A stretch of DNA of 27,930 nucleotides from IMG/VR virus record IMGVR_UViG_2529292904_000023. One strand, written 5' to 3'. Source of the DNA: a virus (Duplodnaviria > Heunggongvirae > Uroviricota > Caudoviricetes). Below, piece after piece: positions 4,203 to 6,723 of the stretch. Numbering within the stretch: position 1 is the stretch's first letter; each line of letters starts with the position of its first letter. The notes under the pieces are model-generated. The model worked only from the letters and a program-made list of their open reading frames with translations. It did no database searches and was not told where the DNA came from. The position numbers and the translations under genes were made by a program.

Positions 4203-4735
4203 GCCGCGTTTCCTTCTTTCTTATTAACAATTACACCGTCATATATTTCATTAAGGTGCCCTCTCAACTCCATGCGCCTTAATGCAGATAACATGTAATC
4301 GCATTCAACCTGCTTATTTCCAGTAAATGGCTTATCGTCAGGTTTACCCCAACAGCAATTACCCTTGGGCCACCCATGTACTTTCCGTACTCTTCCGTTA
4401 ACAACGTGAAGTAATCCCCAGCCAGGTGGTAAATCCTCAATTGAAATAATTCCCGGCTCACTAATAAAGAATCGCCAGTCGCCCATTCCAAGAGACGGAT
4501 TTTTACGAAAACGCTTTTTTCTATCTGCCAACAAGTCAGCACGAGAACACTTCGCCTCTATCAGGCATGATGCTGAATTTCTGAATCCCATAGCATCTGG
4601 CTGTTCTCCGGTACTGGTTACAGCTATAAAGCGGTCATGAAAACAAACCTTGAACCCGTTGCGCTTAAGGAACTTGTACGCAATCTGACAGAGTTCGCGG
4701 TGTGTTAACGCCATATCACTCTCCTTTGATGCCAA
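4199..4735 (-). CDS. Hypothetical protein with a candidate PD-(D/E)xK nuclease motif
   Basis: GEQPDAMGF...CLIEAKCS fits a PD-x(n)-E-x-K signature; fold assignment unverified. Confidence 0.4.
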   Translation of the reverse strand: MASKESDMALTHRELCQIAYKFLKRNGFKVCFHDRFIAVTSTGEQPDAMGFRNSASCLIEAKCSRADLLADRKKRFRKNPSLGMGDWRFFISEPGIISIEDLPPGWGLLHVVNGRVRKVHGWPKGNCCWGKPDDKPFTGNKQVECDYMLSALRRMELRGHLNEIYDGVIVNKKEGNAA

Positions 4736-5444
4736 TGTTTACAGACTGGCAAGCCTCTTTGAGCACCCAGTCAACAGCGTCTTTCCATGCTCCGGTTTCG
4801 ACTGGCGGATTCTCACGCTTTACCTGCTCATAAAAACGCACCGCTTTAATCAGTCCTTCAGGTACTACTGGCGATGGCTGTTTAGCTTCTAAATCAGCAA
4901 TTCTGTCAACTACGGCATCTACTGCATCTGAAAAACCGAACCAGTTACTCCACTCAGGCCTATCCCCGGTTGCTGCAAAATACATATCAGCTAAAGCAGA
5001 CTCAGCATGGTCACGCTCGTTAATGAGTTGCTCTTCGCTTTTCTCCAGTTCAGCAATACGCTTCTCTGCGGCCTCTGCCCTGCATTGTTCCCGTTGGAAC
5101 ATTTTGTGGGTGCGGTCGAGCGCCTCAAGTCTAGCTGCTGATGTTTTCTCTTCTGCTTCAAGCTCAACGCGCAGCTTCCCAACCGTAAGCGCAATATCCT
5201 CGTTCTCCTGGTCGCGGCGTTTGATGTATTGCTGGTTTCTTTCCCGTTCATCCAGTAGTGCCAGCACGGTTTCTGGTCCGGTCAGAAATTTGAAGGCATT
5301 GAGCGCATCAATATCCACACCGTAATCTTTAAGTTCCTGTTCACTTAACAAATCATCATCAGCTGGCAACATTAACAGGCGTTCCATTGCTGGAATTGCA
5401 CGTTCCGCCACCTCACGCAGTGCCTGGTAATTAATTTCGCTCAC
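4716..5444 (-). CDS. ead/Ea22-like protein, paralog 1
   Basis: N-terminus (M)SEINYQALREVAERA and coiled-coil middle typical of Ea22-like proteins; GTG start overlapping the upstream stop, preceded by AAGGAGG. Confidence 0.6.
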   Translation of the reverse strand: MSEINYQALREVAERAIPAMERLLMLPADDDLLSEQELKDYGVDIDALNAFKFLTGPETVLALLDERERNQQYIKRRDQENEDIALTVGKLRVELEAEEKTSAARLEALDRTHKMFQREQCRAEAAEKRIAELEKSEEQLINERDHAESALADMYFAATGDRPEWSNWFGFSDAVDAVVDRIADLEAKQPSPVVPEGLIKAVRFYEQVKRENPPVETGAWKDAVDWVLKEACQSVNIGIKGE

Positions 5445-6121
5445 TGGTTGCCTCCTTTGCGAAGCTGGGCAGCAAAGTCAACTAACCACTCAGTCATTTC
5501 AACCTTCCCTACCAGGTCTGAACCAGGGTACATACAGCAATCACTCTGCGCCGCTTTGAAATCCTTATACTCATATTCTTGGGCCACCAGATTTTTTGCA
5601 GCTTCTATAGCAGCATCCACCCCCTGCGCCCGGACTTCAGCCAGGAAAGCATCAGTGGTTGGCGTTTCAGGTATCTGTCTCCTCATCCGTTCTATTGCAT
5701 GATTGAACCCGAAGTCTTCCGCGAGAGATACGTCATCCATATTGTCATTGTCATCCTCAATATCCCGTAATTCTGGAATTGCAGACTTTATTCCCGCATT
5801 CTCCGCTGCCAGCGCCGCGCACTTGGCTTCAAGAGCGGCAACCACTTCCTGATGGTCTTTGTACTTAACGTATGAGCCGGAGATGTCATCACCTTCGGTG
5901 TTTAGCCATGCGTCATTGCAATTCACTGCGTAGGTTCTGATGCTGATGCTCTCCCGCCCCTGACAGACGCCAGGCCAGTCAATAAAGTATCCGCAATGCC
6001 TACCCTCAGACGTGCGCGCAGGATAAATGCCGTTATGACCCGGCAAAATATATGCTACCCATTCATCTTGCGTTGCCTGTTCCGCCGCCTCGCGCAGTTC
6101 TTGATAGTCAATCTTGCTCAC
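5441..6121 (-). CDS. ead/Ea22-like protein, paralog 2
   Basis: Start reassigned to GTG 6121 (VSKIDYQELREAAEQA) with the same AAGGAGG-N6-GTGA junction as paralog 1; shares the TDAFLAEVRA and RKGGNQ C-terminus with paralog 3. Confidence 0.55.
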   Translation of the reverse strand: MSKIDYQELREAAEQATQDEWVAYILPGHNGIYPARTSEGRHCGYFIDWPGVCQGRESISIRTYAVNCNDAWLNTEGDDISGSYVKYKDHQEVVAALEAKCAALAAENAGIKSAIPELRDIEDDNDNMDDVSLAEDFGFNHAIERMRRQIPETPTTDAFLAEVRAQGVDAAIEAAKNLVAQEYEYKDFKAAQSDCCMYPGSDLVGKVEMTEWLVDFAAQLRKGGNQ

Positions 6122-6723
6122 TGGTTGCCTCCTTTGCGAATCTGTTCCGCCCATTCTTCTAGGGATTTCTCCGCATATTCACCGGACAGGCCATCAATCG
6201 GGTGTGGTTCATTAGCCAACTCTTCTTTCGCTGACAGAATCATGCGTGTAACGTCGAAAACTTCACGTAAAGACTTATTGATAAATCCGTGATTGAAAGC
6301 AGCAGCAAGACGGCTTGCGGTATAGTTAATCCCCTCGTTGCGTGCTTCCGCACGAATTTCAGCCAGGAAAGCATCGGTGGCTGGAGTTTCGCTGTGGTGC
6401 AGGGCATCGTTGATAATCATTGCAGCAACACCAGCCTGCCCTGCATCCGTGACCGACACATGCTCAAGAGTTACGGCCATTGCGTGTTTCAGCCCCGCAT
6501 TCTCCGCCGCCAGCGCCGAAAACTTCTCGTGTGCCAACTTAACAGCTGCTACAGCCTGCTTAATTGACTCAATCGCTTTCTGTTGGTCTTCGGACAGAGC
6601 CAAAATCTTGGCCTCCGCTTCAGCAAATTTACGCACCAGATATTCAGCATTTGTTTCATTCACTTTCAGATCTCGTGGTACACATTTCCCGCGAAGAAAC
6701 CCTTCCATTTCGAAAACATTCAT
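6118..6723 (-). CDS. Ea22-like C-terminal-domain paralog 3
   Basis: Shares the TDAFLAEIRA...RKGGNQ C-terminal region; start at ATG 6723 overlapping the HD gene stop (ATGA). Confidence 0.5.
   Translation of the reverse strand: MNVFEMEGFLRGKCVPRDLKVNETNAEYLVRKFAEAEAKILALSEDQQKAIESIKQAVAAVKLAHEKFSALAAENAGLKHAMAVTLEHVSVTDAGQAGVAAMIINDALHHSETPATDAFLAEIRAEARNEGINYTASRLAAAFNHGFINKSLREVFDVTRMILSAKEELANEPHPIDGLSGEYAEKSLEEWAEQIRKGGNQ

Follow-up and report, generated by a model that had tools for sequence, protein, structure and literature searches.

Genes and operon context

The window analyzed here (the whole stretch of 27,930 nucleotides of IMG/VR record IMGVR_UViG_2529292904_000023, a virus of the Caudoviricetes) contains an array of three consecutive same-strand ORFs, which we call genes A, B and C in the order in which they are read (Table 1). 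In a genome matching the window, the gene order is int, xis, .., C, B, A, yfdR, yfdQ, yfdP, repressor; the repressor of the window lies at 9359-10051. An alternative ATG of gene A at 6723 would overlap the yfdR stop as ATGA (6720-6723), and other neighbors in the operon overlap too (ATGA at 4199-4202, GTGA at 3411-3414). Compared with the layout of lambda, the array occupies the early-left position between the recombination/early genes and xis-int, and it is best read as belonging to the leftward early operon of a lambdoid Escherichia coli prophage, equivalent to the lambda exo-xis or P22 ea region. The coding strand of the array yielded no promoter-like site and only one weak, 5-pair terminator-like site (6045-6028); no Rfam family was found within 4000-7400.

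Table 1. Genes, linkers and homology islands of the array
Feature	Position	Strand	Description
yfdR-type 5'-deoxynucleotidase gene	6720-7283	-	Directly upstream of gene A, same leftward operon
Gene A	6118-6729	-	203 aa; P22 EaE-like; ends ..EEWAEQIRKGGNQ-stop
Island D2, gene A copy	6479-6525	-	Encodes ..ALAAENAG..
Island D3, gene A copy	6349-6390	-	Encodes ..ETPATDAFLAEIRA..
Island D1, linker copy 2	6073-6161	-	..A(A/E)Q(L/I)RKGGNQ tail plus S(K/E)I(D/N)YQxLRExAE head
Linker 1, A/B junction copy	6116-6140	-	TTCGC-AAAGGAGGCAACCAGTGA-GC
Gene B	5441-6121	-	226 aa from GTG (PGAP's start); hybrid; ends ..FAAQLRKGGNQ-stop
Island D2, gene B copy	5778-5824	-	47 nt, 77% identical to gene A copy
Island D3, gene B copy	5627-5668	-	42 nt, 86% identical to gene A copy
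Island D1, linker copy 1	5396-5484	-	Reference copy of D1
Linker 1, B/C junction copy	5439-5463	-	Identical to the 25-mer at 6116-6140
Gene C	4716-5444	-	242 aa from GTG; typical Ead/Ea22; ends ..IGIKGE-stop
Coiled-coil core of gene C	5151-5270	-	..QQYIKRRDQENEDIALTVGKLRVELE..; most widely shared sub-genic segment, sharp edges
Linker 2	4712-4727	-	AAAGGAGAGTGAtATG; KGE-stop end of gene C plus Shine-Dalgarno; next gene's ATG 1 nt past stop
Gene served by linker 2	4199-4714	-	MALTHRELCQIAYKF..

An earlier, sequence-only reading of this DNA had described the tandem arrangement correctly and taken the genes for three Ea22-like paralogs, an assignment that stands for genes B and C and falls for gene A. 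Both B and C carry the Pfam signature PF13935 (Ead_Ea22; 9e-28 and 98.0 bits for B, 5.6e-30 and 105.2 bits for C, against a cut-off of 27), and gene A matches no Pfam family at E values up to 0.01. Gene A matches phrog_614 (7e-91) and, at 99.5% identity, the 'Eae protein' of phage Lys8385Vzw; it shares 35.8% identity over residues 69-200 with P22 eae (E 6e-15 for AF217253 and 5e-15 for L06296), whose translation shows the ALxxEN and TDAFLAE motifs and the ..AAQLRKG.. end that place gene A among the EaE-like proteins. The C-terminal part of gene B has EaE-like motifs in common with gene A, and its family matches overlap (phrog_368 spans residues 1-226, phrog_614 spans 89-226), so that B is a hybrid, with an Ead/Ea22-type N-terminus (VSKIDYQELREAAEQ..) followed by C-terminal two-thirds of EaE type. 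In BLASTP comparisons, A and B are 29% identical in amino acids over about 140 C-terminal residues (E 2e-9), the similarity of B and C is confined to their first 32 residues (41%), and A and C show none.

The single-sequence AlphaFold2 model of gene C comprises a helix at residues 3-24, a single helix at 57-159 and a three-helix C-terminal domain (CTD) at 168-236, with pLDDT above 90 over approximately residues 70-140; it predicts the Ea22 layout of a short N-terminal segment, a long coiled coil and a variable CTD. The CTD matches phrog_26213, and the peptide of the coiled-coil core is also present in P22 Ead and lambda Ea22. For gene B the single-sequence structure model has a mean pLDDT of 46. 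Searches with A, B and C gave no significant match in PDB sequences, no function in NCBIfam and, in PADLOC, no usable match, DruC (0.0017, over the coiled coil) being the only one. We distrust and rejected a match of gene C to a 'RecBCD inhibitor' (phrog_4790, 8.8e-9), which lies in the coiled coil. The family phrog_14548 resembles an EaE-type protein joined to an Ead head. Ea22 of lambda and Stx phages has been found in experiments to be pro-lysogenic and tetrameric (PMC7093339, PMC10834534), and any role of the array proteins would be carried over by analogy from that work.

Anatomy of the linkers

The two junctions within the array share one 25-mer, GCTCACTGGTTGCCTCCTTTGCGAA on the plus strand, which occurs in exactly two copies and has no other match in the window at up to three mismatches; two matches were found in none of 100 shuffled sequences. 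These are the identical junctions of about 25 nucleotides of the sequence-only reading, and the repeats persist on realignment. Read on the minus strand (TTCGCAAAGGAGGCAACCAGTGAGC), linker 1 ends the upstream ORF as ..(I/L)RKGGNQ-TGA, places AAGGAGG 6 nucleotides before the GTG and overlaps stop and start as GTGA at both junctions, again as previously described; this is the configuration of overlapping genes (same strand, stop/start overlap, Shine-Dalgarno sequence 5-9 nucleotides upstream of the start). The 25-mer is enclosed by an 89-nucleotide direct repeat, D1, whose copies are 78% identical. Further shared segments within genes A and B, proposed from the sequence beforehand and recovered here, form islands D2 and D3, which vary more at third codon positions (0.41-1.0) than the linker does.

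The NTGA stop/start overlap is present in 100 of 100 Ead-type starts, a sample picked by protein similarity; in this less biased sample the canonical form of the linker accounts for approximately 55% of the starts, the rest forming a variant family. The Shine-Dalgarno sequence is masked by RNA structure at neither copy of linker 1 (z 0.07 and -0.44), and any coupling would therefore be by reinitiation. We rejected an RNA element at the junctions, the 121-nucleotide folds being no stabler than their shuffles at linker 1 or at linker 2 (z 1.27), and likewise a programmed frameshift leading to a fused A-B protein, because the fetched loci held no linker copy without an in-frame stop. On direct reading, the Chi site GCTGGTGG is absent from the linker.

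Linker 2 lies at the other end of gene C. Its 98 instances in the fetched loci all read AAAGGAGAGTGA, in front of which stand 33 distinct C-terminal 14-mers and behind which stand 41 distinct start peptides (about 25 genes). The terminal K/RGE motif of Ea22 proteins is present in gene C (IGIKGE), where it coincides with the Shine-Dalgarno sequence of the next gene; A and B end in RKGGNQ instead.

Distribution and contexts of linker 1

We found the 20-mer core of linker 1 in at least 120 IMG/VR contigs. Of 5426 complete E. coli genomes, 2474 contain a 34-nucleotide version (1834 when at least 80% of its length is required), at a median of two and up to 13 places per genome; the linker is also present in 331 phage records. 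Across 106 non-redundant contexts, pairwise identity is at the background of 0.29 beyond approximately -40 and +50 nucleotides, rises to 0.93 (-16 to -11) and 0.77 (+2 to +7) directly outside the searched core, and is 0.93-0.99 at positions -16 to +1. Because the loci were mostly collected via the linker itself, conservation inside the core is partly ascertainment. Among 4951 non-redundant pairs of contexts, the median exact run is 23 nucleotides, and 42% of pairs share 25 or more. The 25-nucleotide identity of the two junctions in the window is the population consensus of the linker and no private event. A 25-mer match is far beyond chance for random sequence, yet usual for two linker copies from different phages.

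The genes that the linker joins are diverse on both sides. Downstream, 11 gene clusters can be told apart (among them methyltransferase-like, PAPS-reductase-like, DUF551-type and Ead-type), and the upstream partners display about 18 different C-terminal tails; single-linkage BLASTP merged most of the upstream partners into one family via shared internal motifs, and upstream diversity was therefore judged from visibly different tails. At six loci, which represent three distinct contexts on the upstream side, the linker is read by the preceding gene in another frame (..AKEATSEQD-stop). Among protein-level matches to KGGNQ-stop, the canonical 18-mer is present in 148 of 165, about two-thirds of these loci having been picked by the exact 20-mer. 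GGA is the rarest glycine codon of E. coli, and the first glycine codon of KGGNQ-stop is GGA in 162 of the 165, the three exceptions being unrelated sequences; in linker 2 the GGA that forms the Shine-Dalgarno sequence is present in 98 of 98. The flanking peptides (..AAQLRKGGNQ and SKIDYQALRE..) are conserved beyond the needs of a ribosome-binding site, making some protein-level selection likely.

Mosaic breakpoints and presence or absence of gene B

As breakpoints we took the ends, after dereplication, of segments with 90% identity or more in 4700-6740, from approximately 160 comparison loci. Of the 163 breakpoints, 87 lie in seven islands that together cover 28% of the sequence (binomial p 4e-12, to be read with the caution that the counts derive from related sequences and not from independent events). 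The linker-1 islands account for 39 of the 163 (18 in 6073-6161, 21 in 5396-5484), linker 2 for 14, D2 for 12 in the A copy and 4 in the B copy, and D3 for nine in each copy. Most of the remaining breakpoints flank the coiled-coil core of gene C, which is covered by about 90 overlapping high-scoring segment pairs (HSPs) of at least 90% identity from about 160 loci, with raw HSP ends gathering at its edges (83 in 5140-5159, 55 in 5260-5279). In 20-nucleotide bins, no breakpoint falls in 6740-7279 (yfdR) or 4220-4699. Homology is lost within 60 nucleotides after the stop in 135 of 193 pairs that share at least 300 nucleotides upstream, and in one locus 99.1% homology runs from 5794 up to linker 1 at 6143. 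The linker combines conserved DNA at a gene boundary, non-homologous flanks and coincident breakpoints, as a boundary sequence does.

Related genomes differ in which cassettes they carry. Phage Lys8385Vzw is homologous to the window over 8300-6102 and 4737-4060 and has two other genes in place of B and C. An artificial A-linker-C junction is matched by E. coli RM10809-3 over its full length (224 of 224 nucleotides); in that genome the C side is identical at 311 of 311 positions and the A side at 239 of 246, and exactly 677 nucleotides, gene B, are missing. Gene B, with a linker on both sides, behaves as an insertable and deletable cassette. The suggestion that recombination generates a variable array is borne out by this join, exactly at the linker, between near-identical flanks, and copy number varies in relatives as well: among 80 loci selected for likeness to gene C, a single Ead-type start is seen in 54, two in 24 and three in none. 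The B-C pair recurs in 281 genomes, the A-B junction in 79; this is an old arrangement, and a widespread one. Three complete E. coli genomes (F2_407_2_2, DEC9B and 7_33_46A) match both junctions of the window at 100% identity, and another IMG/VR contig retains the A-B-C order with one synonymous change in the second linker.

A proposed model of cassette exchange and its alternatives

We consider it probable that the array consists of EaE-like, hybrid and Ead/Ea22 cassettes, coupled in translation and exchanged at short boundary sequences that are conserved. The linker core AAAGGAGGCAACCAGTGA ends the upstream ORF, the KGGNQ tail being a by-product, carries a strong Shine-Dalgarno sequence and overlaps the TGA stop with a GTG start, an arrangement in which ribosomes that terminate could reinitiate on the next gene; ribosome coupling at the GTGA is predicted in this way from the sequence. 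Because the same short sequence flanks many unrelated genes, a crossover within it would leave both neighbors intact and expressed, and linker 1, linker 2 and the intragenic motifs would mark the joints at which cassettes were swapped, inserted and lost. The model builds on direct observations (the anatomy of the linker, its spread, the diversity of its contexts, its independence of frame, the clustering of breakpoints and the precise presence or absence of gene B), from which we infer that homologous recombination, by phage annealing proteins or RecA, may act at the linker, as against selection merely retaining such recombinants. With its 18-25 nucleotides, the core does not exceed the length of homology that RecA or Red is usually said to require for efficient recombination; exchange may depend on a wider imperfect island of approximately 40-90 nucleotides, or the clustering may be due to selection alone. 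Among the early-left genes of this prophage we identified no known annealing recombinase.

A stronger form of this model, which we put forward tentatively as possible, is that a small set of 16-25-nucleotide adapters joining Shine-Dalgarno sequence, stop and start (KGGNQ-stop/GTG, KGE-stop/ATG and variants) are the actual substrates of phage annealing recombinases, the RKGGNQ and K/RGE tails being adapter imprints and no functional peptides. If so, the ea or exo-xis region would be integron-like in function without a site-specific recombinase, with genes inserted, deleted and permuted and every recombinant in frame and expressed.

The linker might instead be kept only as a translation signal, illegitimate joints arising anywhere and selection retaining those at gene boundaries (the Hendrix model), in which case the shared sequence would not be the cause of exchange; we think this unlikely. 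Breakpoints do also gather at places resembling domain edges (the ends of the coiled-coil core, 6580-6639), the exact core is short, with its median run of 23 nucleotides, and most phage mosaic boundaries are without conserved sequences (PMC3029335). However, many variants of Shine-Dalgarno sequence and spacer would work, yet one 18-25-mer, spacer and synonymous bases included, recurs in more than 100 unrelated contexts; the allele lacking B joins exactly inside the repeat with near-identical flanks, the classic product of direct-repeat exchange; and phage Rad52-like recombinases are reported to be efficient on short, diverged homologies (PMC3945230). Conservation of the peptides themselves, with ..AAQLRKGGNQ and SKIDYQALRE being functional (for example, in oligomerization or partner binding) and the DNA identity following from them, is in our judgment quite improbable. 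The same nucleotides are retained where they are read as ..AKEATSE.. in another frame and where the downstream genes are unrelated to Ead/Ea22, the rare GGA codon that forms the Shine-Dalgarno sequence is fixed in both linkers, and the protein motifs of D2 and D3 are freer at third positions than the linker. This has to be set against a conserved peptide that reaches beyond the core by about 10 residues on the upstream and 15 on the downstream side, an N-terminal segment that tolerates substitutions (SEINYQ/SKIDYQ), the treatment of the analogous K/RGE end as a protein motif (PMC7093339), and lambda, which retains ..IRIKGE-stop although the following ATG is ATC there.

The sequence-only reading had left the choice between recombination and recent duplication, and only recombination is supported. 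A recent tandem duplication in this genome, giving rise to paralogs and identical junctions together, is very improbable: the 25-mers do lie 677 nucleotides apart within an 89-nucleotide repeat, and further repeats are spaced by 701 and 722 nucleotides, but nucleotide likeness is limited to three repeats of 42-89 nucleotides at 77-86% identity, similarity between the gene bodies is at or close to the limit of detection, an identity of 25 nucleotides is typical for random pairs of linkers from different phages, and the B-C pair and A-B junction recur in many genomes. Misassembly, with reads collapsed or misjoined at the repeat, had been named as a possible refutation. Short repeats can mislead assemblers, but a repeat of 25 nucleotides is far below read length, and the identical junctions in three complete genomes, together with the gene order in an independent contig, make such an artifact barely credible.

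Comparison with known systems

The debate on the origin of phage mosaicism, which sets homologous exchange at short boundary sequences against illegitimate recombination followed by selection, has been short of clear boundary sequences (PMC3029335). The linker offers an unusually clean and abundant case (near-invariant, with more than 100 flanking combinations, frame-independent, and with natural alleles that differ by one cassette), making the question testable with simple crosses. Our results also suggest that what ends Ea22 proteins as K/RGE and EaE-like proteins as RKGGNQ is largely the ribosome-binding site of the next gene, which matters for the design of truncations and for reading conservation in these proteins. 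For annotation, the linker explains the GTG starts of array-type genes and their misannotation by gene callers.

With lambda Ea22 and P22 Ead (PF13935, the mosaic exo-xis proteins) the array shares the Pfam signature of B and C and an equivalent genomic position, and gene C has the layout of N-terminal segment, coiled coil and CTD and the K/RGE end that are reported for Ea22 (PMC7093339, PMC10834534). In contrast, the CTD of C is unrelated to the solved CTD of lambda Ea22 and without a PDB match, B ends with an EaE-type body in place of an Ea22-type CTD, and lambda has one copy with a different 5' junction (..KQRGSK-stop/GTG). The P22 ea region (ORF56-eae-eaf-ead) has the same order of an EaE-like gene followed by an Ead-like one. 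Diverged relatives of the linker tail stand at the ends of P22 Eae (..IAAQLRKGVQS) and ORF56 (..NAILRKDKCNR). The beginning ..SPMSNIDK is common to eaf and ead, another repeated junction of like kind, and Ead ends ..KVKGE. The canonical 18-mer has no match in P22 even at three mismatches. The GTGA overlap with a strong Shine-Dalgarno sequence 6 nucleotides upstream, inside the preceding ORF, resembles the ATGA/GTGA coupling of phage operons, but ordinary coupling sites are gene-specific whereas the linker is portable, near-invariant and reused between unrelated gene pairs.

Our literature search for translational coupling and mosaicism together returned nothing relevant, and PMC9836094 does not discuss breakpoints. 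In the relaxed recombination by Rad52-like proteins described by De Paepe et al. 2014 (PMC3945230), short or diverged homology likewise bounds exchanges ('HR traces') among E. coli temperate phages and prophages; that work used homologies of hundreds of base pairs, and recombination at an island of 18-90 nucleotides would be an extrapolation. Short conserved boundary or 'linker' sequences in lambdoid phages go back to Susskind & Botstein 1978 and to Clark et al. 2001 on HK620, as cited in PMC3029335, and have in common with the present linker a short conserved sequence at a gene boundary, non-homologous flanks and coinciding mosaic joints. As far as those sequences are described in PMC3029335, the present linker differs in being also ribosome-binding site, stop and start, partly inside the upstream coding sequence, and it is found in more than 100 contexts and almost half of the complete E. 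coli genomes. The linker array is a clear example of a process already proposed for lambdoid phages.

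A stop-start junction repeated between three mosaic genes

Exactly two copies of the 25-mer GCTCACTGGTTGCCTCCTTTGCGAA are present in the window, one at each junction between three consecutive minus-strand genes (A, B and C; see table), with no third copy at up to three mismatches, and none of the shuffled sequences carried two matches. On the coding strand it reads TTCGC AAAGGAGGCAACCAGTGA GC; the upstream ORF ends in ..RKGGNQ-TGA, and a GTG start lies 6 nt past AAGGAGG, its last two bases being the first two of the stop (a GTGA overlap). The sequence-only reading had described an identical junction before two of three Ea22-like paralogs, a Shine-Dalgarno (SD) sequence and GTG laid over the upstream stop, and internal segments common to two paralogs; all of these were recovered, the last as two internal repeats. 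From this layout we infer that translation is probably coupled at the junction, which we call linker 1. Neither linker 1 nor the sequence ending gene C (linker 2) has significant RNA structure, and no Rfam family matches the array region; matches above the gathering score elsewhere in the prophage are tabulated.

Features of the array and its surroundings, with dereplicated breakpoints per island (numbering of the window)
Feature	Coordinates	Strand	Length	Breakpoints	Remarks
Gene A	6729-6118	-	203 aa		
Gene B	6121-5441	-	226 aa		from GTG; PGAP start identical
Gene C	5444-4716	-	242 aa		
25-mer copies	5439-5463, 6116-6140	+	25 nt		
Direct repeat around 25-mer	5396-5484 / 6073-6161		89 nt		78% identical
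Internal repeat	5778-5824 / 6479-6525		47 nt		77%
Internal repeat	5627-5668 / 6349-6390		42 nt		86%
Linker 2 (KGE)	4712-4727	-		14	AAAGGAGAGTGAtATG, end of gene C; gives KGE*, SD and next gene's ATG
Linker 1, copy 1 (B/C)				21	
D3 in gene B				9	
D2 in gene B				4	
Linker 1, copy 2 (A/B)				18	
D3 in gene A				9	
D2 in gene A				12	
Coiled-coil core	5151-5270		120 nt		encodes QQYIKRRDQENEDIALTVGKLRVELE
DUF551 gene	3411-4202				
Repressor gene	9359-10051				
STnc100	18449-18657				Rfam
AgvB (anti-GcvB sRNA)	18658-18717	-			Rfam
isrK	11310-11386				Rfam
C4 antisense RNA	11408-11495				Rfam
Three tRNA genes	18088-18336				Rfam

The array sits in a leftward early operon, in the order repressor, yfdP/Q/R-type genes, A, B, C, DUF551 gene, exonuclease and excisionase-like gene, a position corresponding to the lambda exo-xis region and the P22 ea region. 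No promoter-like sites were found on the coding strand within the array, whose sole terminator-like site is a weak 5-pair hairpin (6045-6028).

Of the three supposed Ea22-like paralogs, B and C match Pfam Ead_Ea22 (PF13935; 9e-28 and 5.6e-30, respectively), but A has no match to this family and resembles P22 EaE (35.8% over residues 69-200); its product and the 'Eae protein' of phage Lys8385Vzw are 99.5% identical. By PHROG, B combines an Ead-type head (residues 1-40), an insertion and an EaE-type body (residues 89-226; phrog_614), and this complete architecture is a common family in its own right (phrog_368, residues 1-226). Gene C is a typical Ea22-type protein: its single-sequence AlphaFold2 model predicts an N-terminal helix, a single helix at 57-159 (pLDDT >90 across roughly residues 70-140) and a C-terminal domain of three helices, which fits the three-part layout published for Ea22 (PMC10834534), and it ends in ..IKGE, the 'K/RGE' end known for Ea22 proteins (PMC7093339). 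Recent duplication, one of the two proposed origins, does not hold: in pairwise comparison A and B align at 29% identity along about 140 C-terminal residues (E 2e-9), similarity between B and C is confined to their first 32 residues, and A and C show none, so the three are not recent duplicates. They form instead a chain of mosaic relatives.

Gene A itself comes in two lengths, 203 aa (as here) and about 116-123 aa, the shorter form lacking the stretch ~6361-6618 (comparison loci L031, L095 and L165); at 6361 the missing stretch is bounded within the D3 motif, one of two repeat islands (D2 and D3) common to A and B. In NZ_CP074756.1 (locus L001, 8392-8526, window ~6595-6729) PGAP annotates gene A no further than codon 45, as an 'incomplete' pseudogene, although the ORF of 203 aa is intact there and 99.5% identical to a phage protein.

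Linker 1 across phages, plasmids and genomes

The junction is a population-wide linker. Its 20-nt core GCAAAGGAGGCAACCAGTGA is present in at least 120 IMG/VR contigs, and a 34-nt version in 2,474 of 5,426 complete E. coli genomes (1,834 at >=80% of length; median 2 places per genome, maximum 13), at 792 places on plasmids and in 331 phage records (Escherichia, Salmonella, Shigella and Stx phages). About 800 matches to linker and array lie on plasmids of 48-108 kb with ead/Ea22-like genes (for example, NZ_CP123030.1 and NZ_CP195558.1), which are presumably phage-plasmids.

Anchoring instances on linker 1 and removing redundancy left 106 different contexts, whose mean pairwise identity is at background (0.29) past about -40 and +50 nt, rises upstream to 0.42-0.60 at -34 to -17 and 0.93 in the block bordering the searched core, and downstream is 0.77 at +2 to +7 and 0.40-0.56 at +8 to +48. 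Upstream proteins have about 18 visibly distinct C-terminal regions ahead of the common tail. The genes downstream form 11 clusters; about two-thirds of these genes are Ead-type (VS[EK]I[ND]YQALRE..), the others being unrelated (methyltransferase-like, PAPS-reductase-like, DUF551-type and several of no assigned type). The two exact 25-mers in the window are ordinary in this setting (random context pairs have a median exact run of 23 nt, and 42% reach at least 25 nt).

Probable constraint on the bases of the linkers

In six loci, representing three distinct upstream contexts, the upstream gene enters the linker out of frame (ending ..AKEATSEQD* or ..AKEATSERN*) and the linker 1 bases are unaltered. 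A degenerate search covering every coding of KGGNQ* gave 165 cases, 148 of them with the canonical 18-mer, a figure that is partly ascertained because about two-thirds of those loci were chosen by exact 20-mer; enterobacterial variants are single synonymous changes, and a CAG to CAA variant makes the GTG start ATG. GGA is the rarest glycine codon of E. coli. At the SD-forming glycine codon, linker 1 has GGA in 162 of 165 instances, the remaining three being unrelated sequences, and linker 2 has it in all 98. Every gene downstream of linker 1 has a second codon starting with A, as the TGA overlap demands. In contrast to the linker, identity at third positions ranges over 0.41-1.0 in the internal motifs ALAAENAG and ETPxTDAFLAE, the pattern expected of conserved peptides. 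Among 100 Ead-type starts sampled by protein similarity, with the linker not used for selection, the NTGA overlap is present at all 100 and the canonical linker at about 55%, the others being a few related variants (KGGCQ*, KGVIQ*, ..QGDVI*).

Linker 2 is also widespread: among the fetched loci, whose choice did not depend on it, it was found 98 times, invariably as AAAGGAGAGTGA, preceded by 33 distinct C-terminal 14-mers and followed by 41 distinct start peptides (about 25 genes). Lambda Ea22 (locus L247, 848-880) ends in ..GIRIKGE* with identical linker 2 bases, and has ATC where ATG follows elsewhere. Because the KGE* codons form the SD of the next gene and the bases are kept in lambda, the 'K/RGE' motif reported for Ea22 proteins (PMC7093339) coincides with the next gene's ribosome-binding site; judging by lambda, K/RGE may in addition act at the protein level.

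Mosaic breakpoints and the gene B cassette

We compared window 2001-9500 with roughly 160 linker-containing loci, taking as a breakpoint each end of a segment of >=100 nt with >=90% identity. Segment ends gather in about 10 sharp clusters, and seven islands (both linkers, D2 and D3; 28% of the sequence) take 87 of 163 dereplicated breakpoints in 4700-6740 (binomial p 4e-12, for events that are not independent). Breakpoints outside the islands mostly border the coiled-coil core or fall at 6580-6639; the 20-nt bins of 6740-7279 (yfdR) and 4220-4699 contain none. The core, whose gene C peptide is also found in P22 Ead and lambda Ea22, gave about 90 HSPs of at least 90% identity with very sharp edges (83 and 55 HSP ends). 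For pairs with at least 300 nt of homology, upstream homology ends no more than 60 nt past the stop in 135 of 193, and downstream homology no more than 20 nt 5' of the SD in 121 of 178. Phage Lys8385Vzw is homologous to the window over 8300-6102 and 4737-4060, with two unrelated genes replacing B and C, and the limits of this swap are linker 1 and linker 2.

The DUF551 gene has additional breakpoint clusters inside it and at its start (4040-4079, 34 HSP ends; 4200-4219, 19), and in NZ_CP074756.1 (L001 4761-5989), otherwise 100% identical, an IS3-family element and other genes take its place left of ~4204, so the window does not derive from that very locus. The N-terminal sequence of the DUF551 protein (MITITKERLL..) is similar to the heads of P22 EaA and several linker-downstream genes (M[ST][AT]ITKERI..), which suggests another shared 5' module.

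Because B lies between two copies of linker 1, recombination between them should excise exactly 677 nt. A hypothetical A-linker-C junction of 224 nt, used as a query, was found at 224 of 224 nt in E. coli O22:H8 RM10809-3 (C side 311/311 and A side 239/246 against the window, joined within the linker) and in one piece at 98-99.6% in several further genomes. Of the junctions, B-C occurs in 281 genomes, A-B in 79 and A-C, at >=80% coverage, in 36, a number that includes some two-piece matches to the complete A-B-C array; three genomes have the whole array with 100% matches at both junctions. Of 80 loci picked for their similarity to C, a single Ead-type start is present in 54, two (spaced 677-685 nt) in 24 and none in two; no locus has three. 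The array is thus variable, as had been proposed, with B present or absent between genomes, but recent duplication as its source is not borne out.

The region is best explained as an array of translationally coupled cassettes joined at short conserved boundary sequences; on this reading, recombination would take place at the linker itself. In the main alternative, the linker is a translation signal only and selection determines where joints appear; this account is less likely because a single specific sequence is reused across unrelated contexts and the B indel is precise, but it keeps some probability because the exact core is short. No known recombinase was found among the early genes of this prophage. 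Phage annealing recombinases have been demonstrated experimentally to recombine short or diverged homologies (PMC3945230).

Relation to known systems

What is established here is the anatomy and population pattern of the linker array; the boundary-sequence concept, Ea22 mosaicism and tandem ead/Ea22-like genes are already known. Module exchange in lambdoid phages via boundary sequences is an old idea (Susskind & Botstein 1978; Clark et al. 2001, as cited in PMC3029335), Ea22 mosaicism has been published (PMC10834534), and tandem 'ead/Ea22-like' genes are routine annotation in genome records. A literature search, outside which Clark et al. 2001 lay, found nothing on this exact linker or on K/RGE and RKGGNQ tails as imprints of ribosome-binding sites. 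P22 Eae ends in ..IAAQLRKGVQS, a diverged version of the A/B RKGGNQ tail, and the P22 eaf and ead heads (L164 1748-2143, 1158-1868) both read ..SPMSNIDK, a repeated junction like that of the window but different in sequence. In the Stx1-converting phage AP005153.1 (L166 2372-2951; Sato et al. 2003) 'repeat_region, arrangement c/d/e, region IV' is annotated across the 5' end of the ea22 homologue, so its depositors had noticed repeated segments at an ea22 junction in 2003; that junction, ..KQRGSK*/GTGAGCGAAATTAAT.., is the lambda junction. The linker array is a well-documented further case of this known boundary-sequence type, modest in interest.
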